From an uncultured Pelagibacteraceae bacterium (lineage in GTDB: Bacteria; Pseudomonadota; Alphaproteobacteria; Pelagibacterales; AG-422-B15): a DNA stretch of 64,000 bases. Below are positions 5,009-22,966 of the stretch, piece by piece. Where the stretch lies: positions 8,394 through 72,393 of the forward strand of contig CABZLP010000003.1 of NCBI GenBank assembly GCA_902526565.1, given 5' to 3'. The position numbers and the translations under genes were made by a program. The notes under the pieces are model-generated. The model saw only the letters and a list, made by a program, of their open reading frames with translations, was not told where the DNA came from and ran no database searches. Positions within the stretch are counted from its first letter, which is position 1, and the number at the start of each line of letters is the position of its first letter.

Positions 5009-5083
5009 TGGAGCGAGTGAAGGGAGTCGAACCCTCGACCTAAACGTTGGCAACGTTTCGCTCTACCACTGAGCTACACTCGC
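5009..5083 (-). tRNA. tRNA-Gly (anticodon GCC), CCA encoded
   Basis: The reverse complement folds by hand into a cloverleaf: acceptor GCGAGTG/CACTCGC, D arm GCTC-AGTGGTA-GAGC, anticodon stem AAACG/CGTTT with loop TTGCCAA, variable AGGTC, T arm GAGGG-TTCGACT-CCCTT, discriminator T, CCA. Length 75 nt. Confidence 0.9.
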
Positions 5084-5218
5084 ATGTTAAAAACTGCCAA
5101 GAACTTTTTGGCAACTGTTAAACTAAAAGGTTTACAGTAAAACATATCGAATAACATTAAAATTTTAAGCAATTTTTGTAAATTACGTTTTAGACTAAAA
5201 ATGCTTATTTTGGTACAT

Positions 5219-6084
5219 TTATATTAATTTAATTTGTGTATTTAGTTCAAAAATATAATTAATTGATTGACCCTCTTCATACACTTTTTTCTTTGATACT
5301 ATTTGGTAATTAAATTTGTGAAGAAGATCGATGCATTCCTTCTCAATTTCAGTGCCACTCTCTATTTCAATAAGTAATGAATGACATATTTTATTTTTTA
5401 AAGTTTCTTTCATTCCACTAAGAACTAGTAATTCATTACCATCAACATCAATTTTTATATATCTAGGTTTAAAATTTAAATCATTTATAAAATTATCTAC
5501 CGTAGCACCAAAAGAACCTTGTTTAATAAAATTAGATTTTTTTAAAATCTCATTTTGATTTTGAAAGTTATGTCCTGACTTACCCCAATTTAGCTCAGAA
5601 AGTTGTAGAACATCAAATTTATTTTGATCATTAAAACATATTGGGAAAGCAATAACGTTATCATTAAATAAATTGTCTGAAATATTTAAATTTAATAAAG
5701 CAAAGTTTAAAGACTCTGGCTCAACAGCTATTACGTTATGACCAAGTCTGCCAGCATAAAGTGAAAATATTCCAACATTTGCTCCAATGTCTAAAAAAAT
5801 GAGTTGGGTTCAAAATTAGAAATCCACTCAACAGTGTCGGGTTCTTTTGTATAAAAATTTAATCCTCTTGATTTTGTATTTCCACCAAAGCTTCTCAATG
5901 AAAATAATTTTTTCTTTTCACTGTCTGTTACACTATATCTTGAGTATTTCAGAAATAATTCAGTAATGCCTCTTTTTTTAGGATCGTAAAATAACCTAAA
6001 AATAAGCAATATTAAGAAGTGTAATTTTCCTTTTGGTTTATTATCCAATGTTAGATAATTACGAAAAAATTTATATAGCTTCAT
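5219..6084 (-). pseudogene. FkbM-family methyltransferase interrupted by a 1-nt frameshift in a T7 run
   Basis: ORF 5791..6084 ends ...EWISNFEPNSFF*. A second frame, open from 5809 down to 5219, continues LDIGANVGIFSLYAGRLGHNVIAVEPE...KIDVDGNELLVLSGMKETL...LLIEIE. Adding one T to the T7 run (A7 at 5793-5799 on the + strand) fuses both parts into a roughly 288-aa FkbM-type protein. Confidence 0.75.
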
Positions 6085-6331
6085 GATTTAAATATATACA
6101 AAAAGCCGTGAGTTAGTACTCAATTTTAAAAGAATTTTGTATTACTATTTAATTTTATTTTAACTTATTTTTTATAAATTTAAATTAACACTTCTTTCAC
6201 TGTTTATTTTTTTATATGCACATACACACAATAAAACTTGTGTAAATGATACAAATAAAAAATGGCTTAAAAAATTGACGGTGAGATTAACAGTTGTTTA
6301 ATATATGGCAGTTTGTATTTACAACTTAATT

Positions 6332-6370
6332 TTGTCAACGTTTCGCTCTACCACTGAGGTACACTCGCAT
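6332..6370 (-). repeat. degenerate copy of the 5' half of tRNA-Gly(GCC) (direct repeat of 5047-5085)
   Basis: 39 nt match 5047-5085 with 2 mismatches. The match covers tRNA nt 1-37 (acceptor 5' strand, D arm, anticodon stem 5' strand and the whole anticodon loop) plus 2 upstream nt. The mismatches fall in the D stem (G10 to C) and the anticodon (GCC to GAC). Similarity stops exactly after the anticodon loop. Confidence 0.8.
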
Positions 6371-6458
6371 TATTTATTGCTTTTAAAGGAAAAAGCCTTG
6401 TTTTTCTTGATAAGCAGATTATTTATATATTCAATAATATAGTATATCATTAATACAA

Positions 6459-7106
6459 ATGAACAGAATTTCAGATATTGAACTTTTACCAAAGAAAGTG
6501 CCAATTTTTCCTTTAACTGGTGCAGTATTATTTCCAAGCACCCAATTACCACTTAATATTTTTGAGCCTAGGTATGTACAGATGATTGATGATGCTTTGG
6601 CATCGCCAGGACGTTCAATAGGAATGATACAGCCTAATAAACCTGGTGAGAAATCACTTAAAAAAGTTGGATGCTTGGGAAGAATATCAACATTTAATGA
6701 AGCTGAAGATAACCGATATTTGATAACTCTTTCAGGAACAGTAAGATTTGAAGTTGCTGAGGAGTTAAATACAACAACTCCTTATCGACAAATAATACCT
6801 AGTTATAAAAACTTTGAATCGGACCTTGCACCTCAAGTTGTCGACTCAATTGATCGGTCGAAACTTTTAGCGCTTGTAAAAAGGTACCTTGAAAATAGAA
6901 AAATAATGGCTGACTGGGAAATCATAAAAGACACTCCTACGGAACAACTCATAAACTATTCTGGAATACTTGTACCTTTTACTTCAGAAGAGAAACAGCT
7001 ACTTCTTGAGTCTAAAACAATTATCACGAGAAGTCATGTCTTAGAGGCTCTTTATCAATCATATATATTTGACTCAGCTAGCGAGAAAAGTGATCAGCTA
7101 CACTAA
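6459..7106 (+). CDS. LON peptidase N-terminal (substrate-binding) domain protein
   Basis: 215 aa. Has the characteristic start of the Lon N domain, VPIFPLTGAVLFPSTQLPLNIFEPRY. No ATPase or protease part. Confidence 0.8.
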   Translation: MNRISDIELLPKKVPIFPLTGAVLFPSTQLPLNIFEPRYVQMIDDALASPGRSIGMIQPNKPGEKSLKKVGCLGRISTFNEAEDNRYLITLSGTVRFEVAEELNTTTPYRQIIPSYKNFESDLAPQVVDSIDRSKLLALVKRYLENRKIMADWEIIKDTPTEQLINYSGILVPFTSEEKQLLLESKTIITRSHVLEALYQSYIFDSASEKSDQLH

Positions 7107-8260
7107 AGCGAATTAAAATGATCACCTCCTGTTGCACTTTTAACTATTTTCTTTTTCACAAATTTACTATTTTCTAAAATTTTGATACCTAAACTAACCA
7201 CTCCAGAAACTAGATTGTTCTCTGCAGATAAAAGTTTATCCAATGTTAATGTGCCAAAAGAATAAGCGGCATTATCTATTTTTCTAATTTGATCGTATTC
7301 TTTGAAAGCCATAACATTGTTTATTTCATAACCTAAAGATTTATATTTTAAGATAACCTCTACAAACAGAGAAATATCTTTGATACTCAAATTCAACCCT
7401 TGTCCTGCTATTGGATGTATATTATGAGCGATATTCCCCATAATAATGGTATTTCTATTAAATAGTTTTTTTGCAAATTTAAAATTCAGTTTATGACTTT
7501 CGATATCTTCAATTTTAAAATGACCAATGTCAGAATTCAGATATTCATTTACTTTATTTACCAATCTCGTTTGCTCGATAAGCTCCTTTGAGTCATTTTT
7601 TAATGACCAAACTAAAGATGCTCGATTTTTTGTATATGGTAAAAAAGCTAGGGGACCACTGGGAGTAAAAAACTGAAACGCATGATTTTGTTTTTTAAAA
7701 TCACCAGTTACATTCATTGAAAGAGCTGTTTGGTGGAAATTATGGGAAATAAATTTGATTTTTGTATCTTCTAGTAAATTTAGGTCATCTTGAGTTAAAA
7801 TTAAGGCTTTTGAGAATATTAGTTTTTTTTGATCTATCTCTATACACACTTTATTAGAATCAATTTTATTTCTTTTTAATTGAGTTATATTTATGATTTC
7901 AATATTCTTATTATTTTTAATATTTAGGTCTAATAGATTATGAATAATTTTATTAGGCACAATTTTTCCCAATAAATGGTTTAAATCATTATCAAATGTA
8001 ATACTTGATCGTTTATCAGCCCTCACTAATTTACATGTAATTTTTTTTATATCAGAAAATTCATTTAGTGCTGTCGGATCATTTAAAATACTACATAAAT
8101 AGTTTACTGATCCTGTAGAGAGGAATGTGACTAAATTTGAAACACTCCGTTGATTTGGCCTGTTTTTAATAAAACAGACCTTAATGTCATTCCTAGCAAG
8201 CGCTATAGCTGCGATTTCTGCAGACATACCCCCACCGTATATGACAAAATCATAATTCAT
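7103..8260 (-). CDS. UbiH/UbiF/COQ6-family FAD-dependent monooxygenase
   Basis: 385 aa. N-terminal dinucleotide fold DFVIYGGGMSAEIAAIALA and the family motif GNIAHNIHPIAGQGLNLSIKD. Confidence 0.85.
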   Translation of the reverse strand: MNYDFVIYGGGMSAEIAAIALARNDIKVCFIKNRPNQRSVSNLVTFLSTGSVNYLCSILNDPTALNEFSDIKKITCKLVRADKRSSITFDNDLNHLLGKIVPNKIIHNLLDLNIKNNKNIEIINITQLKRNKIDSNKVCIEIDQKKLIFSKALILTQDDLNLLEDTKIKFISHNFHQTALSMNVTGDFKKQNHAFQFFTPSGPLAFLPYTKNRASLVWSLKNDSKELIEQTRLVNKVNEYLNSDIGHFKIEDIESHKLNFKFAKKLFNRNTIIMGNIAHNIHPIAGQGLNLSIKDISLFVEVILKYKSLGYEINNVMAFKEYDQIRKIDNAAYSFGTLTLDKLLSAENNLVSGVVSLGIKILENSKFVKKKIVKSATGGDHFNSL

Positions 8261-8367
8261 TTTTTTAAAGAAATTATTTTATCCTTATATTATTTAAGAA
8301 GTTATATAATGACTACATGAATCAATTGCCAACAGAAAATATTAATTATTTTTAAAGGATGTAAAGT

Positions 8368-10647
8368 ATGAAACTTTTGCCAGATTCGTTAAGAATATTT
8401 GCTATAAATCGCGCATTAGAATTATCTGGATTGTTAATTGCTCTACTCAGTGTTTTTGTTTTTACGTCCGTTATCAGCCACTCACCGTTTGACCCAAATA
8501 TAAATAACTTAAATAACACTAAAGTAACAAATTTTGGTGGCCTTATAGGAGCAAATGTTTCAAATATTTTACTGCAGATGTTTGGATATTTCAGTTTATT
8601 AATTTGCCCTGTTCTTATTAGCTGGTCTTATAAAGTTTTCTTTACTAAGAAACTTAAATTTTTTGCACTTAATTTATTTCTTTTACCATTGATGATCACT
8701 GCACTCGCAATTTTTTCAGAGATCATTGAATTATCAAGTTCTAATGGGTTTATTGCTCACCAGTTTGTAACTTATTTAGAGAGTTCAAATATTTTTGAGA
8801 ATAATTACATTTTTTATTTATTTGTATCAGTTTTTTTCTTTTTATTTGTAATATTTTTTTACGGAGCAATGGGGCTAAGTAAAAATGAATGGAGTAATAT
8901 ATATCTTTTTTTAAGTACTGTTTTTAAATTATTAATCAGGCCAACTAATAAATTAAGTTTTTTAAAAAAATATTTTACTTTTAACGTACCATTCAAAAGA
9001 AATTATCAACAGAAAGAAAAAAGTAATCAAAAACTTGAACCTAAAATTAATTTTGATGAAATAAAAGATCAGCCTGTGAGTGATTTTTTCAGTCAACCAA
9101 AAAAGGACCATCTTGTTGAAGAACAGGATGAAATATTTTTGAATGATCTTAATTATAGAGCGCCTGGGATTGATATTCTCACTCGTCCTGATTCAAATCT
9201 AGAGAGTTCTACTAATCAAGAAGAATTAAAAAACAATGCAGAAAAACTGAAAGGAGTACTAATAGATTTCAAAATTGAAGGAGAAATTATTAACGTTTCT
9301 CCTGGTCCAATAGTAACCATGTATGAGTTACAACCTGCTCCAGGGATTAAGGCTTCTAAAATAATTTCATTGTCTGATGACATTGCAAGGAATATGAGCG
9401 CAATGTCTGCAAGGGTTGCGATTATTCCTGGTAAGAATGTTATTGGTATTGAAATACCAAATTCAGTTAAAAATCCAGTTTACCTAAGTGCATTATTCAA
9501 AAACGAAAAGTTTGTTTCTAATGAAAAGAATTTAATATTGGCTTTAGGCAAAGATATCAGTGGAAACGCAGTATTTGCAAATCTCGAAAATATGCCCCAC
9601 TTACTCATAGCTGGTACAACAGGTTCGGGTAAGTCAGTTGGTATTAATGTTATGATAACTTCAATTTTATACAAACATTCTCCGGATGATTGTAAATTCA
9701 TATTAATTGATCCAAAGATGTTAGAGTTATCTGTTTATGAAGGTGTCCCGCATTTAATCACGCCAGTCGTAACAGATCCCAAAAAAGCAATTACTGCTCT
9801 TAAGTGGGTGGTAAGAGAGATGGAGGCTAGATACAAAAAAATGTCACTTCTTGGTGTTAGAAATATTGAAAATTACAATGTTCGCATTGCGGATGCTATT
9901 CATAAGTCAGAAAAAATAATACGATCGATTCAATCAGGAATTAATCCTGAAACCGGCCAGCCAGAAACGAGAAATATTGAAATAGAAAATAAAAAAATGC
10001 CTTTTATTGTAGTTGTGGTTGATGAAATGGCAGATTTAATGATGGTCGCTGGGAAAGAAATTGAACATACAATTCAAAGGTTGTCTCAAATGGCACGTGC
10101 GGCTGGAATTCATTTAATCATGGCAACACAAAGACCAAGTGTTGATGTAATCACAGGTACTATTAAAGCTAATTTTCCAAGTAGAATTAGTTTTCAAGTG
10201 AGTTCTAAATTTGACAGCCGAACAATTCTTGGAGAAGAAGGTGCAGAGAGATTATTAGGAAAGGGTGATATGTTGATGATGACTGCAGGTGGCCAGACAA
10301 CAAGAATTCATGGGCCTTTCATTTCTGACAACGAAATTGAAAATATTGTTAAGTCACTTCAGAAACAAGGGCAACCTGAATATGATGATGAAATAACAAA
10401 AGAAGAGGAAGAGGAAGATAGAATTGATAATGATTTATCAGAAAACAATAAGGATGAACTCTTTAAAGACTCGATAGATATTATTTCTAAAGAAGGCAAG
10501 GCATCTACAAGCTTGCTCCAACGTAAACTTCAAATAGGTTATAATCGTGCAGCAAGAATAATAGACCAATTAGAAGATCAAGGATACATCAGTTCTGCTA
10601 ATCATGCAGGAAAAAGAGAAATCAATTATGATAAGTTTACGAATTAA
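8368..10647 (+). CDS. ftsK: DNA translocase FtsK
   Basis: 759 aa. Hydrophobic N-terminal domain, Walker A GTTGSGKS, Walker B VVVVDEMADLMM, ATQRPSVDVITG, and a C-terminal gamma domain TSLLQRKLQIGYNRAARIIDQLE. Confidence 0.95.
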   Translation: MKLLPDSLRIFAINRALELSGLLIALLSVFVFTSVISHSPFDPNINNLNNTKVTNFGGLIGANVSNILLQMFGYFSLLICPVLISWSYKVFFTKKLKFFALNLFLLPLMITALAIFSEIIELSSSNGFIAHQFVTYLESSNIFENNYIFYLFVSVFFFLFVIFFYGAMGLSKNEWSNIYLFLSTVFKLLIRPTNKLSFLKKYFTFNVPFKRNYQQKEKSNQKLEPKINFDEIKDQPVSDFFSQPKKDHLVEEQDEIFLNDLNYRAPGIDILTRPDSNLESSTNQEELKNNAEKLKGVLIDFKIEGEIINVSPGPIVTMYELQPAPGIKASKIISLSDDIARNMSAMSARVAIIPGKNVIGIEIPNSVKNPVYLSALFKNEKFVSNEKNLILALGKDISGNAVFANLENMPHLLIAGTTGSGKSVGINVMITSILYKHSPDDCKFILIDPKMLELSVYEGVPHLITPVVTDPKKAITALKWVVREMEARYKKMSLLGVRNIENYNVRIADAIHKSEKIIRSIQSGINPETGQPETRNIEIENKKMPFIVVVVDEMADLMMVAGKEIEHTIQRLSQMARAAGIHLIMATQRPSVDVITGTIKANFPSRISFQVSSKFDSRTILGEEGAERLLGKGDMLMMTAGGQTTRIHGPFISDNEIENIVKSLQKQGQPEYDDEITKEEEEEDRIDNDLSENNKDELFKDSIDIISKEGKASTSLLQRKLQIGYNRAARIIDQLEDQGYISSANHAGKREINYDKFTN

Positions 10648-14527: not shown

Positions 14528-15538
14528 TTAGAAACCTACTACATACATGAAGTTCCACACATCTGTGTCACTAGCATCACCACCAGCTACATCAGTTTCA
14601 GTGTAATCTAAACCAAATGATGCTGCGCCCATTCCTTTACTTAATGATACTCTCATATAGTCAGTATCAGTAGTATAGTCTTTGGTCGCGAATGTTACAC
14701 CGGCGTTCATACCCATAACAGATGTACCTACACCCATTTGAGTTTCTTCCATCCCGTTGTCACTGTCGTACAATGCGTAACCTAAGTTAAGGCCTGCAAC
14801 TGAATAACCAACAGTTACGAATGAAGGATCAACGTCAGCGGTCGAGCCATTGTAGTCAATCTGAGATACTCCAGCCGCGACTGTTGCACCCATGATTGAT
14901 GTTTTAGCGGCATAGGACATAACTGCTGCATGTCCTTCTGTAGCATCTGAACCAGATAATCTAGTGTATCCAGTTGGAACATCTGCTCCAGCATTAACTT
15001 TAACAATCTGATTTGGATCATCAGTGTTAATTGCTGTACCAGTAGCACCATTAGTTGACTGTACTTTCATACCTCTAGTTACTGCGAAAGATATTCCGCC
15101 CATACTATTTGAGTATTTGATAGAGTTACCAGATTTTGTATCACCATCATCATAGATACCGGCACCACCTGTTTTACCACTTAGTGCAGATCCACATGCG
15201 TTTAGAGAGAAACATGCTGGAGATCCGTCCATCGAGTCAACGGCTGAGTCTTGACCGGTACCTAAACCGATTGAACCCATACCTGTATCAATGTTAACGT
15301 CTGTTGTTATGGACGCAGATGTTACGGACATTGTAAGTCCAATACCCATACCGTTATCCATTGAGTCACTGTACGAAACATAGATTGAGTTAGTAGAAAA
15401 ACTTGATGTCATTCCACCGCCATCACTATCACCTAACGTACCAGCGAAATAACCACTAATTGACATTTCAGCGTTAGCTGCACTTGCAGCCATAACTGAA
15501 GCCAATGCGGTTGCTCCGATTAGTTTTGATCTATTCAT
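14528..15538 (-). CDS. outer-membrane porin (beta-barrel, C-terminal Phe)
   Basis: 336 aa. Signal peptide MNRSKLIGATALASVMAASAANA, alternating G/S/T/D/Y-rich strands, terminal ...FMYVVGF. A good Shine-Dalgarno (AAAGGAAATTATTATG) is unusual for this window. Confidence 0.75.
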   Translation of the reverse strand: MNRSKLIGATALASVMAASAANAEMSISGYFAGTLGDSDGGGMTSSFSTNSIYVSYSDSMDNGMGIGLTMSVTSASITTDVNIDTGMGSIGLGTGQDSAVDSMDGSPACFSLNACGSALSGKTGGAGIYDDGDTKSGNSIKYSNSMGGISFAVTRGMKVQSTNGATGTAINTDDPNQIVKVNAGADVPTGYTRLSGSDATEGHAAVMSYAAKTSIMGATVAAGVSQIDYNGSTADVDPSFVTVGYSVAGLNLGYALYDSDNGMEETQMGVGTSVMGMNAGVTFATKDYTTDTDYMRVSLSKGMGAASFGLDYTETDVAGGDASDTDVWNFMYVVGF

Positions 15539-15654
15539 AATAATTTCCTTTCATATTAGAGTTGATCATAGTTAAATTTAACTGAGACTCTTTTATCAAA
15601 AAAATTGACTATTTTTAAAGGTATTTTCATAAATGCCACATTTTTATTTTTATA

Positions 15655-15672
15655 TGTGATATAAATATCACA
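15655..15672. promoter_or_regulatory. perfect 18-bp palindrome TGTGATATAAATATCACA (candidate operator)
   Basis: 8-bp arms TGTGATAT/ATATCACA separated by AA. It sits in the 228-bp divergent intergenic region between the porin and the lipoprotein gene. Confidence 0.3.
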
Positions 15673-15766
15673 ATTAGATTTTATTGAAAAAATAAGAAAA
15701 ATGAGTTATTTCAATTACTTTGGAGATAAGTTTGGTTAATATTTATTTAATAGATCTCAAAAAATT

Positions 15767-16306
15767 ATGAAAAAATCCCTTTTTTTAGCTATTTTACTTA
15801 CTCTTACAGTATCTTGTGCCCAGTTACAGAATATTCAAGATGAACCGGAAACATACCAGTCTGAAAAACAGAGGGTTTTGTCTAAGAAAGCAGAAGATCT
15901 TGATATGAATTTGCCTGATGGCAGCACTGTATTAGATGAGAACTCTGGCTTTAACCTTCTGGGTGCTTTGGGATTAAATTCTTCCTCTGATTATAAATTG
16001 GAGTCGTTAACCTTTGAAGTTGCGTTAGACAAAATAAGCTTCATGCCTTTATTATCTGTTGACTCAATGTCAGGTGTCATCGTTACTGATTGGTATAGTT
16101 TAGATAGTGGCCAAAGTAGAATAAAGATTAATGTTCGCGTTATCGACCAAGAAATGACGAGCAAAAGTCTTGAAGTGTCATTATTTACTCAAACATTAGA
16201 CGACGATAGATGGATTGATCAAGGAATTAACTCCGAGCAAAGCTTGAAAATAAAAGAAAGTATTTTATCTACAGCGAGATCATTAAAAATCGCATCAGGA
16301 CTTTAA
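15767..16306 (+). CDS. lipoprotein of unknown function (possibly DUF3576-like)
   Basis: 179 aa with a lipobox, LTLTVSC. The position directly upstream of leuS and the motif VIVTDWY recall, from memory, the alphaproteobacterial DUF3576 family. This is unverified. Confidence 0.55.
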
Positions 16307-16323
16307 GACATCAATATTCTGTA

Positions 16324-18894
16324 ATGTCTGAAAAATATAATTCAAAAGTAATTGAAAAAAAATGGCAATCCTTTTGGGCTGAACAGAAGCTATTTGAAAG
16401 CAAAATAATAGAAGGAAAGAAAAAATATTATATTCTTGAAATGTTTCCTTACCCATCAGGAAAGATACATATGGGGCACGTACGCAATTATACATTAGGT
16501 GATGTGATTGCAAGATACAAAAGAGCTCAAGGATACAATGTAATGCATCCTATGGGCTGGGATGCTTTTGGCTTACCTGCAGAAAATGCAGCGATAGAAA
16601 ATAAAACTTCACCAAAAAAATGGACATATGAAAATATTTCCACCATGAAGAAACAGCTAAAACAAATGGGTCTTTCTATTGATTGGTCTAGAGAAATTGC
16701 AACATGCGACAGACTTTACTATCAAAATCAGCAAAAACTTTTCTTAAAATTTTATCGCAAGAATCTGATTTACAAAAAAGAATCTCTCGTAAATTGGGAT
16801 CCAGTGGAAAATACGGTGCTTGCAAATGAACAAGTGATTGATGGAAAAGGATGGCGATCAGGCGCAGACGTTGAGCAGAAAAAACTCTCTCAATGGTTTT
16901 TTAAAATCACAGATTATGCGGACCATCTCCTTAGCGCATTAGAAAAAATGAATGGATGGCCTGATAAAGTCAAGGCAATGCAAAAGAACTGGATAGGAAA
17001 ATCTTTTGGCTGTGAAATTGATTTTGAAATATCAACTGAATTAGATGAATTTAAATCAGAGAAGATAAGGATTTTTACGACTCGTCCGGATACTATTTTT
17101 GGAGCTACTTTTTGTGCTCTGTCTCCTTTTCACCCATTCGTAGATAAGTTAATACAAAATGATGAAACATTAAAATCACAGGTAAACGATTTGAGATCGC
17201 AAAAAATCAGTGAAGAGTCAATCGCAAGAAATGAAAAAGTTGGTATACAAACAAAGTTATTTATTAAGCACCCATTTATTAAAAATAAATGTTTACCAGT
17301 TTTTATCGCAAACTTTATTCTTATGGATTACGGGTCTGGGGCTATTTACGGCTGCCCAGCACACGATCAAAGAGATTTAGATTTTGCTAATAAATATAAT
17401 CTTGAAGTCATACAAGTTATAAAACCCTCTGACGGTTCAAAGTTTGATCGAATAAACGCGTATACTGGAAATGGTATGATCATGAATTCTGAATTTTTAA
17501 ATAATCTCTCAATTGAACATGCAAAAGAAATGATTATAAAAAAGATAGAGGAATTAAATTTTGGAAAGAAAACAACTAACTTTAGATTAAGAGATTGGGG
17601 TATTTCAAGGCAAAGATATTGGGGTTGTCCGATACCTATTATGTATAGAGAGGATGGTAAAGTCATTGAGGTGCCTGAAGACCAATTACCTCTAGAACTC
17701 CCAGAAGACATTGACCTCAACGCATCAGGAAATCCACTTGATAATCATCCTTCTTGGAAGTATACAAAATGTCCCTCTACGGGAATGAAAGCAATAAGGG
17801 AAACTGATACACTTGATACTTTCGTGGACTCTGCATGGTATTTCCTAAGATTTTGCTCTCCGAGTGAAACAAATAATCCCTTCAATATAAACGAGATTAA
17901 TTATTGGATGCCAGTTGACCAGTATGTTGGTGGTGTTGAACATGCTATCTTACATTTATTGTACTCTAGGTTCTTTACAAAAGCGCTTGGTATAAAGGGC
18001 ATTGAAGAACCTTTTGAAAGTCTTTTTACTCAAGGAATGGTTTGCCATAATACTTTTCAAGATGATTCAAAAGCATGGGTCTTTCCAGATGATGTAGAAA
18101 AAAAAGATTCACAATACATACAAATATCTACTGGTAAACCAGTTACAATGGGTGAGATAGAGTCAATGTCAAAGTCTAAAAAAAATGTAATAGACCCTGA
18201 GTCTATCATTGACTCGTATGGAGCTGATTCAGCGAGGTGGTTTATGTTATCAGATAGTCCACCTGAGAAAGATATAAATTGGACCGACTCAGGAATTAAT
18301 GGTGCGTGGAAGATTTGTCAAAAAATTTGGAAGATAGCGATAGAAAATCAAGAAAACCTAAATCAAAACTTTAAATTAAATACACCAGTTTATGAGGGGG
18401 CTTCTCTTAATTTATTAAAAATTATTCACGAAAATCTCAACTCAATAACTCATAGCATTGAAAGATTTCAGATGAATGTAGCAATAGCTAAGGTTTATGA
18501 AATGGTTAATGCAATTTCTAAATTTGAACCTAAAAATAATAATGGTAAACAAGCCATTAGCGAGTCTTTGTATATATTATTTCGAGTAATTGAACCAATG
18601 GTGCCTCATTTGGCTGAGGAATGTTGGTCACTAACAAAGAAAACCAATTCTCTAATTAGTGAGCCATGGCCAAAGGTAAATAAAAAATATTTAGAAAATA
18701 AAAATGTAAATATAGTCATCCAGATTAATGGGAAGAGGAGGGGAGAGGTGATTGTTTTGAAAAATACACCAGAAAATGAAGTCCATAAAGAAATACAAAA
18801 TATTAAAAATATAAAGGATGCATTATCCGGAAAAAATATAATAAAATCAATTTATGTTCCCAATAAAATACTAAATATTGTTATAGAAACATGA
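16324..18894 (+). CDS. leuS: leucine--tRNA ligase
   Basis: 856 aa. Class I signatures [11 protein letters not shown] (HIGH) and SMSKSKKN (KMSKS), plus a CP1 editing domain. Confidence 0.97.
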
Positions 18895-20597
18895 ATAGAC
18901 ACGAACGCAGGAGACAAAAAAAAACCAATAAACTTAGCCAAGGGGTAAACAGCGATTTGGCTGAAGGTATAAGTTTACACATCAATAAGAATTTTAAACA
19001 GGCAGAGAAATTGTATTACAAAGTCCTCTCTTATGAACCAACTAACTATGAGGCATTGAGGCACTTAGGAATTCTCAACCAGGACTTGAAAGATTATGAG
19101 AAGGCTTATAATTTTTTTATGAAAGCTATTCAATTAAATCCCAATGGTTTTCAAGCTCTAAGCAACTTGGCAACAATACATATGCAAAATAAGAACTATG
19201 ATCTTGCATATAAATGCTTACATAAATCTTTTAAAATTAATTCAAATTATGTACCTACAATAAATAATTTGGCTGGGTATTATCATAAAATCAACGATGC
19301 AAGTAATGCAATAAAGTTTTCTCTTAAATCACTTGATATACAACCAAGCAGTCCTCTGGCACGCAACCAATACGCGAAAGCTCTTATGATAAATAACCAA
19401 CCTGAAATAGCAATTAATCTACTTGAAATATTGAATAGAGAATTCCCAGATAATGATGATTTTAAAGTAAACTTATCTTCAGCATATCGAGAAATGGGAG
19501 AGTTTGAAAAAGCTAACAGAATTGCGTCTGAAGGTTTTAAAAAAGATTATAAAAATGTTTCATATTTATTGGGTTATACAAAAGATAAAAAAAACAAGCT
19601 TACAGATAAACATATAAGTTATTACGAGAATCTTATTGAAAATGACAGAATAAATTACGACGATAAAGCAGTAATTTGCCATTCATTTTTTGAATATTTT
19701 AAAAATGAAAAAAATTTTGAAAAAGCAGGGTCATATCTTGTAAAGGGAAATAATGCGCAATATGCATTTAGATCGTTTGATATGAAACATGAGACAAAGT
19801 TTTTTGACAAAATCAAGAAACTTTTTTCTAAAAAAAGGGAATTTATTATAAAAAAAAGGATTCAAAACAAAATACCCATTTTTATTTGTGGCATGCCACG
19901 CTCAGGTACAACATTATGTGAGCAAATACTATCTTCTCATTCAAAAGTTACAGGAGCCGGAGAACTTAACTACTTAGCTGAAGTATCGAATATTAATCGA
20001 GTTTTGCAACCTAGCGGTGAACAAATAAAAAGTTTTGAAACAACCTTAAATGACAATCGAAACCTTGCGGAAGCAAGAACAAAATACCTCGAAAAACTTG
20101 CTTTAAAAGACAAAAATGACTCCACTTATATTTGTGATAAGATGCCTCACAATTTTGTTTTTATTGGGCTAATTAAACTTATTCTGCCTGAAGCTAAAAT
20201 TATATACTGCAAAAGAGACCCTATAGATAACTGCTTCTCATTGTATTCTCATAAGTTTATTGAACTTTCCCATCAATATTCTTATGATCAAAAGGTATTA
20301 GTGCAATATTATAAACTTCACGAGGAGCTAATGAAATTCTGGTTAAAGCAATTTAAAAAAGATATTTTTATATTAGATAATGAAAAGTTGGTTAATAACC
20401 AAGAAAAAATCTCAAGAGATTTAATTGATTTTTGCGAAATAAATTGGGAAAGCAATTGTCTTGAGTTCCATAAGACAAAGAGACAGGTAAGAACAGCAAG
20501 TATTGAACAGGTAAGAACCCCTATCAATAATAGATCGATAGGTGCATGGAAAAAATATGAGAGTTACCTTCAAGAATTAATATCTAATATCAAATGA
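18891..20597 (+). CDS. TPR-repeat / sulfotransferase fusion protein
   Basis: 568 aa. The N-terminal ~200 aa consists of TPR-like repeats ([23 protein letters not shown]..., [15 protein letters not shown]...). The C-terminal domain has the sulfotransferase 5'-PSB motif [15 protein letters not shown] and a 3'-PB-like [19 protein letters not shown] overlaps join it to leuS (18891-18894) and lptE (20594-20597). Confidence 0.8.
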
Positions 20598-21094
20598 TAA
20601 AAAGTATTATTAAATTTAACTTAATAATATTTTTAATCTTTTCTTTAAATGCTTGTGGTTTTAAACCAATGTATAAACTTTCTGAAAATAGTATTGATTT
20701 TAGAAGTTATTCAGTTGCAATAATAAATGAAGATAAAATTTCAAGAGAAATTAAAGAGGAATTTGAGAAATCTTTTCCTGCAAATGATCTTGGGAACAGT
20801 TATGTTATCGAAGTTAATGTCACTGAACATTTAGATCCACTCATCATAAACACTGATGGCACTATTTCCAAGTATAGAATTGAAATTATTATAAATTTCA
20901 AAGTAAATAATAAAGATGGAAAGACATCTCTAATGGAAGATAGAGTTAGAGGATTCGCACAATACAGTGTTGAAACATCTGAAATTGAAAGTGAAGACAA
21001 AAAGAAAAGGATGATAAGAACCGCAACAAATAGTGCGATACAGATGATGATTTCAAGAATCCAAAGTGATACTTCAACAACTAATGATAATTAA
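20594..21094 (+). CDS. lptE: LPS-assembly lipoprotein LptE
   Basis: 166 aa with lipobox LNACGFKP. Size and position in the leuS-lptE-holA arrangement conserved across Proteobacteria. Confidence 0.7.
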   Translation: MIKSIIKFNLIIFLIFSLNACGFKPMYKLSENSIDFRSYSVAIINEDKISREIKEEFEKSFPANDLGNSYVIEVNVTEHLDPLIINTDGTISKYRIEIIINFKVNNKDGKTSLMEDRVRGFAQYSVETSEIESEDKKKRMIRTATNSAIQMMISRIQSDTSTTNDN

Positions 21095-22109
21095 AGATTT
21101 TCAAATTGAAAAAATAATAAATGAAAACAAGGGCTTTTTACCCTTTTTAATCTATGGACCGAACGAGGGGTTAATAAGGGATCACATCAAAAAAATTAAA
21201 AGTGAATATTTAAATGATGTTGATTTTGAAGAAATTTCGATATCCAGTAAAAGTCTAGATCTAAACCCTGATATTCTTCAGACCTCGGCAAATTCAATTT
21301 CAATGTTTAATAGTTATAAACTTATTATTCTAGAGTCATTTAAAGATAAGCATATGAGAGAGCTTGAGAGTGTCATTAATGCAGCCCCAGCTCAAACAAT
21401 GCTGATCGTCAAAGCTGATAACATCAAAAAAACTTCCAAACTCAGAAAACTATTTGAGAATAATGCGCTGTGTTATGCATTGGCGTGTTATGAAGATGAT
21501 GCAAAATCAATGATGAGATTAATTGATAATTTCTGCAAAGAAAATAATATCTCAGTTGATCGGGATATAAAAAACTATCTCATGCAAACATTGAGCACTG
21601 ATCGAATGATCAGCTTTAACGAACTCCAAAAGATCAGTTTATTTTATACTAATGCAAATACTACTCCAAATCTTGAAGAAATAAAAAATTTACTCAATGA
21701 TACTAGCTCAAATAATTTTCAAAAAATGAATGAGTCAGTGATGTATGGAAATACTGCTAAATGTTCTGGTATCATAAGTAAACTCTTGTCAGAGGGAAAT
21801 AATCCAATTTCTATTCTACGCAGCCTCATCAATTACCTAAAGAGGATACAAAAAGTAAAAGTGGAAATAAAAAAAGGAAGTAATTTTGATTCTGCTATAA
21901 AATTTTTGAGACCTCCCTTATTTTGGAAAGATAAGGATAATTTTCAACAGCATTGCATTCGTTGGCCTTTGAATGTAATTGAGAAAAATCTATCTCAACT
22001 TCTTGATGCTGAAATTGATTGTAAAACCAATAGTAAATTATCCAGCATTCTTTGTGAGCGTTCGATACTAGCGATTTGTCACGAAGGTAAACAACACTTT
22101 CAAAATTAA
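21066..22109 (+). CDS. holA: DNA polymerase III delta subunit
   Basis: 347 aa. Position after lptE, with an N-terminal FLIYGPNEGLI clamp-loader-like fold start. The true start may be M7 (21084). Confidence 0.7.
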   Translation: MILQQLMIIKDFQIEKIINENKGFLPFLIYGPNEGLIRDHIKKIKSEYLNDVDFEEISISSKSLDLNPDILQTSANSISMFNSYKLIILESFKDKHMRELESVINAAPAQTMLIVKADNIKKTSKLRKLFENNALCYALACYEDDAKSMMRLIDNFCKENNISVDRDIKNYLMQTLSTDRMISFNELQKISLFYTNANTTPNLEEIKNLLNDTSSNNFQKMNESVMYGNTAKCSGIISKLLSEGNNPISILRSLINYLKRIQKVKVEIKKGSNFDSAIKFLRPPLFWKDKDNFQQHCIRWPLNVIEKNLSQLLDAEIDCKTNSKLSSILCERSILAICHEGKQHFQN

Positions 22110-22966
22110 TTTTGTAGCTTTTGAGTAATCATTTCTAATTGATCAAGTGTTTTGTAGTCAATTTTTATACTGCCACCTTTTTTACCATTGTGATTAATAT
22201 TGATGGTCAAACCAAGTTTTTCCGAAATTTTATTTTCAAGATCGATTGTATCAGGGTCTTTTAATTTTAATTTTTTAATAATGCCTTTTTTATCTTTTGC
22301 TAAATTTTCTGCCTCCCTTACGCTTAAATTTTCATTAATAATTTTTTCTGCTAATTGTTCTGGAAATGCACTGTTCATAATTGCGCGCGCATGACCTGAT
22401 GATATTTTTCCTTCAGTTATCATGTCTTGTATCGATTGTGGTAAGGATAATAAACGAATGATATTAGCTATATGACTCCTGCTTTTTCCGACGATTCCCG
22501 ACAAATCTTCTTGTGTATGACCATGATTTTCAATTAATCTTTTATAACCTGCGGCTTCTTCAATTGGTGAAAGATCTGATCGTTGAACATTTTCAATGAT
22601 GGCAATTTCAAGTGCTTCAGTATCATTAAAGTTTCTTATAACAACTGGCACCTCATGCAATTGTGCAATTTGTGCTGCACGCCATCTTCTTTCCCCAGCA
22701 ATAATTTCATAATTGTTGGCATCAGATGGTGATGGCCTAACGACTAATGGTTGCACTAACCCTTTTGCTTTAATGGAGTCAGCCAATTCATTAATACTAT
22801 TTTTATTAAACAATCTTCTTGGTTGAGAAGGACTTGGTTTTAAATTAGCAATTAGTATTTTAGTTTCCTGACCAACGTTATTATTTTTTGTTTGTAAAGT
22901 TTCTGTATCTCCCATTAGAGATGAAAGACCACGACCTAAACCTTTTTTTGTTGTGTTTGTAACCAC
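22106..22966 (-). CDS. parB: chromosome partitioning protein ParB
   Basis: 286 aa. Motifs GLGRGLSSL, LVQPLVVRP, IIAGERRWRAAQ and an HTH segment. Confidence 0.95.
   Translation of the reverse strand: MVTNTTKKGLGRGLSSLMGDTETLQTKNNNVGQETKILIANLKPSPSQPRRLFNKNSINELADSIKAKGLVQPLVVRPSPSDANNYEIIAGERRWRAAQIAQLHEVPVVIRNFNDTEALEIAIIENVQRSDLSPIEEAAGYKRLIENHGHTQEDLSGIVGKSRSHIANIIRLLSLPQSIQDMITEGKISSGHARAIMNSAFPEQLAEKIINENLSVREAENLAKDKKGIIKKLKLKDPDTIDLENKISEKLGLTININHNGKKGGSIKIDYKTLDQLEMITQKLQN

Follow-up and report, generated by a model that had tools for sequence, protein, structure and literature searches.

A TPR-sulfotransferase gene held between leuS and lptE across one SAR11 family, a candidate for cytoplasmic protein sulfation

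The closest solved relatives of the catalytic domain encoded by the tetratricopeptide repeat (TPR) sulfotransferase (ST) gene studied here, which lies at positions 18891..20597 of a 64,000-nt stretch of SAR11 DNA (the window, meaning the whole stretch analysed), are the tyrosylprotein sulfotransferases (TPSTs). Human TPST1 and TPST2 and a tick TPST (PDB 5wri, 5wrj, 3ap1-3 and 8w5z) had the fold of the ST catalytic domain and were its best sequence matches in the PDB. Both groups had a 5'-phosphosulfate-binding (5'-PSB) loop of the form GxPRSGTT, a Glu base, a Lys, and the Arg and Ser of the 3'-phosphate-binding (3'-PB) segment. However, identity between the TPSTs and the ST protein was only 20-22%, the TPSTs lack its N-terminal TPR arm of ~310 residues, and the invariant cysteines of the TPR-ST alignment (C448, C515 and C523) were its own. 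Whereas eukaryotic TPSTs are type II membrane proteins of the Golgi lumen, the ST protein had no anchor and was modelled as soluble. A bacterial enzyme that can be likened to it, by description only, is RaxST of Xanthomonas oryzae, which a passage of PMC6637879 describes as a cytoplasmic, PAPS-dependent (PAPS, 3'-phosphoadenosine 5'-phosphosulfate) and TPST-like enzyme whose protein or peptide substrate is sulfated ahead of export. RaxST lacks a TPR arm and sits in a raxX-raxSTAB cluster with its own substrate, the RaxX peptide, and exporter; no rax-like substrate/exporter cluster was seen at the ST locus or in the window. The layout of the ST protein is that of OGT and SPINDLY, in which an N-terminal TPR superhelix that binds the protein substrate stands directly before the catalytic domain. 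Their catalytic domain belongs to GT41, whereas that of the ST protein is a P-loop PF13469 domain with no GT41 match, so the likeness is one of architecture and not of family membership; work on the OGT asparagine ladder and on FlmG reportedly exists. Finally, the rhizobial enzymes NodH, NoeE and LpsS, also without a TPR arm, use PAPS to sulfate glycans of the envelope or signal glycans in Alphaproteobacteria, and in rhizobia cysD-cysNC (nodPQ-like) serves as a private PAPS source without assimilation.

The window corresponds to positions 8394-72393 of contig C3 in a 46-contig, 1.04-Mb assembly that is 68.9% complete, and its GC content is 32.9%. An earlier reading of this DNA (the sequence-only reading) had considered a SAR11-like source; in agreement, close homologues of the ST protein carried the name 'sulfotransferase [Pelagibacteraceae bacterium]' and the related records were Pelagibacteraceae single-cell genomes. 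The best reading of the gene, to which a probability of about one half was assigned, is that it encodes a cytoplasmic, PAPS-dependent protein sulfotransferase that is guided to its acceptor by the TPR arm. The gene and the parts of its product are as follows (pLDDT, predicted local distance difference test score).

18891..20597, plus strand: TPR-sulfotransferase gene, 568 aa, ATG start
18891..18950, plus strand: basic N-terminal tail, residues 1-20, of low model confidence (pLDDT 50-53) and conserved in family orthologues
18951..19829, plus strand: helical repeat arm, residues 21-313, 18 helices, with TPR families on ~30-210
19872..20594, plus strand: sulfotransferase domain, residues 328-568, P-loop alpha/beta fold
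19890..19913, plus strand: 5'-phosphosulfate-binding loop GMPRSGTT, residues 334-341, with R337 equal to Arg78 of TPST2 in the alignment
19962..19964, plus strand: Glu358, predicted catalytic base, paired with Glu99 of TPST2 and invariant
20139..20141, plus strand: Lys417 in CDKMP, paired with Lys158 (CNKDP) of TPST2 and invariant
20214..20240, plus strand: 3'-phosphate-binding segment RDPIDNCFS (R442 to S450), with R442, C448 and S450 invariant; the ten-residue motif spans 20211-20240

The combination of TPRs with a sulfotransferase domain, proposed in the sequence-only reading together with PSB and PB motifs, was confirmed by Pfam profile searches. Sulfotransfer_3 (PF13469) matched residues 329-520 with 130.2 bits (cut-off 27, E = 1.7e-37), the match spanning positions 1-215 of the 216 in the profile, Sulfotransfer_1 also matched (2.5e-15), and many TPR families matched residues ~30-210. 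The protein has about nine TPR-like helix pairs. The motifs and catalytic residues held up in both profile and structure alignments. In an alignment of 50 sequences that were 29-79% identical to the window protein, the residues G334, M335, P336, R337, S338, G339, E344, H350, G357, E358, Y399, K417, N421, F422, P433, R442, C448, S450, C515, C523, T535 and S537 were invariant, and among 39 orthologues 61 of 248 sulfotransferase-domain residues did not vary. The motifs by which part of PMC6637879 recognises a PAPS-dependent sulfotransferase were present, in that GMPRSGTT (R337), E358, R442 and S450 were invariant in the 50 sequences and aligned to TPST1 and TPST2. On these alignments the ST protein is almost certainly an intact and active enzyme.

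Nine PDB entries matched the catalytic domain by sequence at E≤0.1 and seven of them were TPSTs: TPST1 three times (3e-13), TPST2 three times (7e-9) and the tick TPST (6e-6); the others were the CurM ST (0.01) and an uncharacterised protein (0.096). The motifs paired as GMPRSGTT with GVPRSGTT, GAGE with CGEE, CDKMP with CNKDP, and the ten-residue 3'-PB motif with VRDGRASVHS. TPST2 was reportedly the subject of a 2013 study by Teramoto. Its Arg78, Glu99 and Lys158, numbers that were obtained here by counting from Arg78, are described as catalytic in a passage of PMC10951654, in which the Ala mutants are inactive. Structural comparison gave the same picture: every sulfotransferase among the Foldseek and VIA matches listed was a TPST (TPST1, TPST2 or the tick TPST; TMt 0.57-0.67), and the domain aligned to TPSTs over 231-235 residues with Z scores of 22.1-22.4 and a root-mean-square deviation (rmsd) of 2.5-2.9 Å, the match to TPST1 (5wri_A) having a Z of 22.4 and an rmsd of 2.7 Å over 233 residues. 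Sequence and fold agree that, among solved structures, protein-tyrosine sulfotransferases stand closest to the catalytic domain.

The best sequence and fold matches of the arm were the TPRs of OGT and SPINDLY (Z = 22.6 for the OGT TPRs). Arm residues H30, Y42, R57, H58, G60, I61, D65, N92, Y120, N126, L165, L195, G203, L283 and N287 were invariant in the 39 orthologues, 13 of the invariant residues lying within positions 21-218, and a conserved patch was formed by the segment RHxGIxxxD (R57, H58, G60, I61 and D65) together with N92 and N126. The AlphaFold single-chain model was confident (pLDDT 91.3, predicted TM-score 0.86) except for the basic N-terminal helix. Neither sequence nor model contained a signal peptide or a hydrophobic or membrane segment, and the protein was for this reason assigned to the cytoplasm, where a PAPS user must be. 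A two-copy complex prediction of residues 318-568, for which no controls were run, scored 0.00 and carries no weight either way. Two further ideas were considered and dismissed: the basic N-terminus is not followed by a hydrophobic core, which speaks against a Tat or Sec signal there, and every catalytic residue is invariant, which speaks against an inactive enzyme. The basic tail, MNRHERRKQKK, was nearly unchanged across family orthologues that were otherwise 38-50% identical and was not present in the sister-family paralogues; candidate roles are membrane contact, nucleic-acid contact or translation start context.

A protein acceptor was favoured because the only close solved relatives of the catalytic domain are protein sulfotransferases, because the architecture copies that of OGT and SPINDLY, and because the arm bears an invariant patch in 39 orthologues. 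The catalytic domain would work in the manner of a tyrosylprotein sulfotransferase, with Arg337 predicted to hold the 5'-phosphosulfate, Glu358 to act as the base, Lys417 to stabilise the transition state, and Arg442 and Ser450 to hold the 3'-phosphate. The N-terminal superhelix would recruit the acceptor as the arm of OGT or SPINDLY does when it guides a protein chain into the catalytic domain. Sulfate would most likely be placed on a hydroxyl group of a peptide or protein, which may be the precursor form of an outer-membrane or otherwise exported protein that is sulfated before export.

The sequence-only reading had regarded TPR-sulfotransferase fusions as uncharacterised. This stood, in that no characterised TPR-sulfotransferase and no known acceptor were found in the literature searched (titles and abstract starts, outside subscription journals), but the fusion itself proved far from rare. 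An exhaustive HMMER search returned 68,605 cluster representatives at E≤1e-3, of which 9,924 were at E≤1e-30, with many full-length matches in proteins of 500-700 aa and, in addition, giant multi-domain fusions. ESM Atlas clusters were already labelled, automatically, as 'tetratricopeptide repeat-containing sulfotransferase family protein' (TPR plus PF13469). Relatives were encoded by at least 623 of the 638 pattern matches listed among species-representative genomes and occurred in Pelagibacteraceae, Desulfobacteraceae, Sedimenticolaceae, Micavibrio, Mesorhizobium, Paraburkholderia, Pseudomonas putida, Verrucomicrobia, Planctomycetota, Nitrospinota and others. The fusion is thus already known and annotated, and the window gene is a member of this huge database family, for which the literature searched showed no characterised member. 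TPST-like bacterial sulfotransferases, often adjoining peptide hydroxylases, were predicted to modify proteins in a passage of Iyer et al. 2010 (PMC2938197). When the flanks of TPR-STs in 70 diverse loci were surveyed (123 ORFs), outer-membrane beta-barrel proteins were found in 8 loci (autotransporters in 3, porins or other outer-membrane proteins in 4, a TonB-dependent receptor in 1), TPR proteins of GT41 (the OGT family) in 5, oxygenases of the 2-oxoglutarate/JmjC type in 3, and TPR fusions to a radical-SAM or methyltransferase domain in 2; this pattern is only a lead towards a protein acceptor. When 505 ORFs from 79 wide-family loci were clustered, the groups that emerged reflected additional TPR/ST paralogues (108 ORFs in 78 loci) or SAR11 synteny, and nothing else.

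The genome of the window also encodes, on contig C27 (L002:540-1532), another sulfotransferase, which has no TPRs (330 aa, PF13469 90 bits). It is flanked by a 182-aa fragment at the contig end and a 409-aa ORF, neither with a Pfam match, and may be of the polysaccharide-island type.

What sets the clade of the window gene apart within the TPR-sulfotransferase family is that its members are single-copy core genes, fixed in a housekeeping operon of a 1.2-1.3-Mb genome. The neighbours in the window are listed below.

16324..18894, plus strand: leuS, leucyl-tRNA synthetase, 856 aa (tRNA-synt_1_2 at 5.4e-60, tRNA-synt_1, Anticodon_1)
20594..21094, plus strand: lptE-like lipoprotein gene, 166 aa, lipobox LNAC|GF, with a weak PF04390 match (25.2 bits, cut-off 23)
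21066..22109, plus strand: holA, DNA polymerase III delta (TIGR01128, 179.8 bits, cut-off 80)

The 568-aa ORF was joined to its neighbours as the sequence-only reading had described, the ATGA at 18891-18894 combining the TGA stop of leuS with the ST start and that at 20594-20597 combining the ST stop with the start of the lptE-like gene. Its placement of the gene as a wedge in leuS-lptE-holA also proved right, and could be extended to a whole family. The own family of the window comprised four genera and 60 genomes, and its sister family was represented mostly by complete genomes of 1.2-1.5 Mb. In the own family the ST gene was found in 49 of 60 genomes, including 13/13 high-quality ones, and the order leuS-ST-lptE-holA was present in 39/39 complete loci, each with a homologous lptE-like ORF; two further loci were cut by contig ends after leuS-ST. 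At the leuS/ST junction the genes overlapped by 4 nt in 23 of the 39 loci; the spacing was -8 to +5 nt in 13 others and 33 nt in one, and two junctions were cut. At the ST/lptE junction they overlapped by 4 nt in 22 of the 39, and the other spacings ranged from -17 to +2 nt, apart from three of -52 to -58 nt that the start-codon rule produced. True loss of the gene from the remaining 11 of 60 genomes was considered and rejected for the five that were checked, which were attributed to assembly gaps because the leuS 3' end was missing as well (5/5). The orthologues diverged down to 38% identity and formed one clade (SH-aLRT, the approximate likelihood-ratio branch support, of 100) whose inner branching tracked the genera. 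The distinctive finding is a vertically inherited, single-copy core gene that is fixed between leuS and lptE across one SAR11 family.

The sister family differed. No ST gene was present at its leuS-lptE/holA junction (0/26 loci); holA followed ~450 bp after leuS in 24/26 loci, the other two being cut short, and a weak LptE match lay between leuS and holA in 12/24 loci (13/26 if one cut locus is counted). PF13469 genes were found in 47/93 of its genomes. Its TPR-bearing STs were 30-37% identical to the window protein, formed their own clade (SH-aLRT 99) and stood at other loci, in some cases between rho and mnmE (L046, L047, L107, L130 and L163) and in others with a porin-like gene on one side and a thiE-like gene plus yggS on the other (L045, L125, L153 and L161). 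Of the 26 genomes with a match at E≤1e-40, 14 had it within 10 kb of leuS. The presence of the gene at unrelated loci in relatives, which the sequence-only reading had named as telling against an envelope link, was therefore true of the sister family and untrue of the own family. All three SAR11 insertion points are in one origin-proximal housekeeping neighbourhood, beside different genes, which weakens a functional reading of the lptE adjacency. The tree, a quick LG+G4 analysis of 91 rows, many with odd composition, left the relation of the two clades open, with the non-SAR11 rows on one side of a branch of limited support (SH-aLRT 75).

Tight overlaps were common in the genome, and the ATGA overlaps around the ST gene are not special by themselves: by a crude gene call, 19 of 48 same-strand neighbour pairs in the window overlapped (4 by 4 nt, 7 by 1 nt and 8 otherwise), with a median gap of 2.5 nt. 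A consensus scan of 15400-22400 gave 32 promoter-like sites against 33.5 expected, which is chance level. Terminator-like sites numbered 5, where 2.7 were expected, and none of them fell on the plus strand between leuS, ST and lptE. One RNA run contained 5% of sampled words from the stretch and yielded three short contigs at 85% likeness, a single one of them an exact match (169 nt, within the ST gene at 19564-19729); none bridged a junction, and they were uninformative on transcript structure. Judged from gene geometry, the ST gene is likely to be co-transcribed with the leuS/lptE string, and it would then probably be expressed together with these housekeeping genes.

Two further features of this neighbourhood were recorded. 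A DUF3576 lipoprotein gene at 15767-16306 (plus strand; PF12100, 6.5e-26) ends 17 nt 5' of leuS, has a homologous ORF in 8 related loci and may be in the same transcription unit as leuS. Identities of LptE and HolA to the window proteins fell into two classes in the family loci L005-L043 (HolA 82-87% versus 40-56%) that were not mirrored by the LeuS and ST identities of those loci, which suggests a recombination breakpoint near the ST/lptE boundary.

The sequence-only reading had taken this context to suggest sulfation of an envelope component, and an enzyme that works at the cytoplasmic face and sulfates a core sugar of LPS (lipopolysaccharide), lipid A or some other glycoconjugate of the envelope, with the arm docked on the biosynthetic or Lpt machinery, is possible but doubtful, and it is not favoured over a protein acceptor. 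The start/stop-coupled adjacency to lptE in every complete locus of the own family speaks for it, as do the sulfotransferases among surface-polysaccharide genes of the Pelagibacter hypervariable region described in part of bioRxiv 10.64898/2026.04.03.716430 and the few wide-family neighbours that are glycan genes (a Polysacc_synt flippase, a NodZ-like gene and a pyruvyl transferase). The claim had been drawn from adjacency alone, however, and leuS-lptE-holA is functionally so mixed a string that adjacency says little. Overlaps are common in this genome, and the sister-family paralogues, between rho and mnmE or beside the porin-like gene and yggS, do not accompany LPS genes. Moreover, the nearest solved relatives act on proteins, and no carbohydrate sulfotransferase was among the sequence or fold matches listed. 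The comparison by model covered NoeE, which reached only 17.4 bits on the ST protein against a cut-off of 500; separate work on NodH and LpsS is said to exist. The polysaccharide-type sulfotransferases of SAR11 islands, in turn, lack TPRs and are found near canonical cysC.

Sulfation of a small molecule or carrier-bound metabolite, such as an osmolyte, a lipid precursor or a hydroxyacyl group bound to an acyl carrier protein (ACP) as in CurM, with TPRs that oligomerise or dock the carrier, is unlikely. The CurM ST was the sole non-TPST sulfotransferase among the PDB sequence matches, and a core gene kept as one copy in a streamlined heterotroph with an extensive organosulfur metabolism (aprA in 101/121 genomes of the order; the dmdA neighbourhood) would suit such a role, but the TPSTs matched some 10 orders of magnitude better than CurM, a small acceptor would not need the long arm with its 13 invariant residues at 21-218, and no polyketide synthase, ACP or metabolic partner was present at the locus.

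Supply of the sulfate donor was considered next to the acceptor. SAR11 sulfur was reportedly the subject of a 2008 study by Tripp. In the part of bioRxiv 10.64898/2026.04.03.716430 that bears on this point, assimilatory sulfate reduction is given for 0/135 complete Pelagibacter genomes. ATP sulfurylase (PF01747) was not found in the window's own genome (69% complete) or in five near-complete relatives of its family, and the Sat type was found in only 5/121 genomes of the order. Some order-level tallies, that of aprA among them, include one genome flagged unpublished (G115), on which no claim hangs. The lack of an obvious PAPS source, to which the sequence-only reading had pointed, is therefore a real puzzle, and it has been partly answered. 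The usual partner that turns adenosine 5'-phosphosulfate (APS) into sulfate and ATP was, by the same count, not seen in most of the aprA-bearing genomes of the order.

Two possible routes to PAPS were found. In 4 of 8 aprA-negative genomes of the own family (G057, G010, G032 and G008), cysD was present with a fused cysN-APS-kinase gene (cysNC; 231-235 bits). No cysH was found in G057 or G010, where PF01507 matched cysD alone, and the cysD-cysNC cassette would supply PAPS privately, to sulfation alone. The cysD products of this cassette were 490-497 aa long (L087:853-2325 and L088:1360-2853); the usual CysD we take to be ~300 aa, so that they would carry an N-terminal extension of ~190 residues. 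All 20 aprA-positive genomes of the family, the window's own included, had an APS-kinase-like gene within ~1.3 kb of aprA. Its position in the own genome is given below.

L003:1258-1752 (contig C2), minus strand: APS-kinase-like gene, 164 aa, PF01583 33.4-33.5 bits (cut-off 21.1)
L003:873-1752 (contig C2, ~106.9-110.2 kb), minus strand: kinase/nucleotidyltransferase pair, also found in L081, L082, L083, L183, L184 and L186

This gene (135-164 aa) overlaps a gene for an HxGH, NMNAT-like nucleotidyltransferase (130-135 aa; 130 aa in the own genome). The 164-aa protein carried the JGI label adenylylsulfate kinase, 7 of its 8 PDB matches were APS kinases (best 2yvu, 6.4e-7), and its P-loop, its D..R segment and its F-V-x-P segment aligned with those of APS kinases, these being segments that presumably bind APS. 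In the main genus of the sister family the pair was present in 74/80 genomes, beside the dimethylsulfoniopropionate demethylase gene (dmdA) and not beside aprA. Alternatively, the pair could correspond to a NadR-like riboside kinase/NMNAT divided into two proteins (TIGR01526, 21 bits). The complementary pattern of aprA plus kinase or cysD-cysNC suggests that each member of the family keeps a PAPS-making route, and that AprBA-made APS can be a PAPS precursor. PAPS would come from the cysD-cysNC cassette in some members; otherwise AprBA would make APS from sulfite and AMP, and the small APS-kinase-like protein beside aprA would phosphorylate it. CysQ would clear the product, 3'-phosphoadenosine 5'-phosphate (PAP), which also arises from phosphopantetheinyl transfer. 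The own genome had both CysQ (255.9 bits, cut-off 228.8) and aprA.

A glycan-island module was also observed in one genome of the family (L188, G008:C2:151500-162000, at 5043-8860), adjoining genes of the sialic-acid type. Its genes encode proteins resembling an APS kinase (153 aa), a pyruvate kinase (449 aa) and a sulfotransferase (345 aa), together with a divergent sulfate adenylyltransferase (335 aa, 170 bits versus a cut-off of 387).

Transfer of a non-sulfate group from a PAPS-like 3'-phosphonucleotide, for example phosphoramidate as in the O-methyl phosphoramidate (MeOPN) of Campylobacter, where a CysC-like kinase and a nucleotidyltransferase reportedly make the donor, is highly improbable: the near-universal SAR11 pair of a truncated CysC-like kinase and an HxGH nucleotidyltransferase presumably resembles Cj1415/Cj1416 in composition, could supply such a donor and occurs where canonical sulfate activation is rare, but no glutamine-kinase-like or amidotransferase-like gene stood beside it in 7 loci inspected, it adjoins aprA or dmdA, both of them sulfur genes, the genuine cysD-cysNC of aprA-lacking members points to PAPS, and the PSB and PB motifs and TPST catalytic residues of the ST protein are intact.

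Several observations weigh against a PAPS-dependent protein sulfotransferase as set out above. The analysis identified no acceptor, and the likeness to TPSTs may merely mirror the set of solved structures, which holds no bacterial PF13469 enzyme of another specificity except the CurM ST. At positions 2 and 6 after the catalytic Glu, TPST2 has Arg (RIIPR), residues which we take to bind acidic residues of the substrate, whereas the ST protein has Asn and Glu. The conserved lptE adjacency favours an envelope glycan as acceptor, no single recurrent partner gene emerged across the wide family from the clustering of 79 loci, and the flank survey relied on crude ORF calls with no background rate. 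On the donor side, the APS-kinase-like protein covers only positions 3-91 of 152 in PF01583, reached 18-30 bits with NCBIfam APS-kinase models whose cut-offs are 127-715, and was always paired with the NMNAT-like nucleotidyltransferase, so that it could be something else. Four aprA-negative genomes of the own family (81-92% complete) showed neither PAPS route, and two sister-family genomes (G114 and G130, 97-98% complete) had a TPR-ST and no PF01583 match.

A porin-like outer-membrane protein is encoded at 14528-15538 (minus strand, 336 aa), 3.3 kb upstream of the ST gene. It is rich in acid-flanked tyrosines (IYDDGD, LYDSDNG, KDYTTDTDY and LDYTETD), and a homologue directly adjoins the TPR-ST gene in some sister-family genomes. 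That this protein is the acceptor is speculation. The fuller proposal, in which protein sulfation would be a housekeeping modification in a major SAR11 lineage, with an OGT-like Tyr (or Ser/Thr) sulfotransferase acting on envelope-protein precursors such as the porin and PAPS made through AprBA and a truncated APS kinase without sulfate activation, is a rather long shot.

Although its genomes are pared to ~1.2-1.3 Mb, all examined members of the own family have this 1.7-kb gene in the same position, and the family keeps with it one of two possible donor routes, though the group cannot assimilate sulfate. Retention of both the gene and its donor supply speaks for a sulfated product that matters to some of the sea's most abundant cells. 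A core, single-copy member in a small genome would be a good place to find the acceptor of a TPR-sulfotransferase, and if that acceptor were a protein, bacterial tyrosine sulfation would be extended far beyond the single example of RaxST. The frequency of aprA, the rarity of Sat and the near-universal kinase/nucleotidyltransferase pair bear on sulfite disposal in SAR11 and, if true, a route from AprBA to PAPS would explain the fate of APS in those SAR11 that have AprBA and lack ATP sulfurylase.

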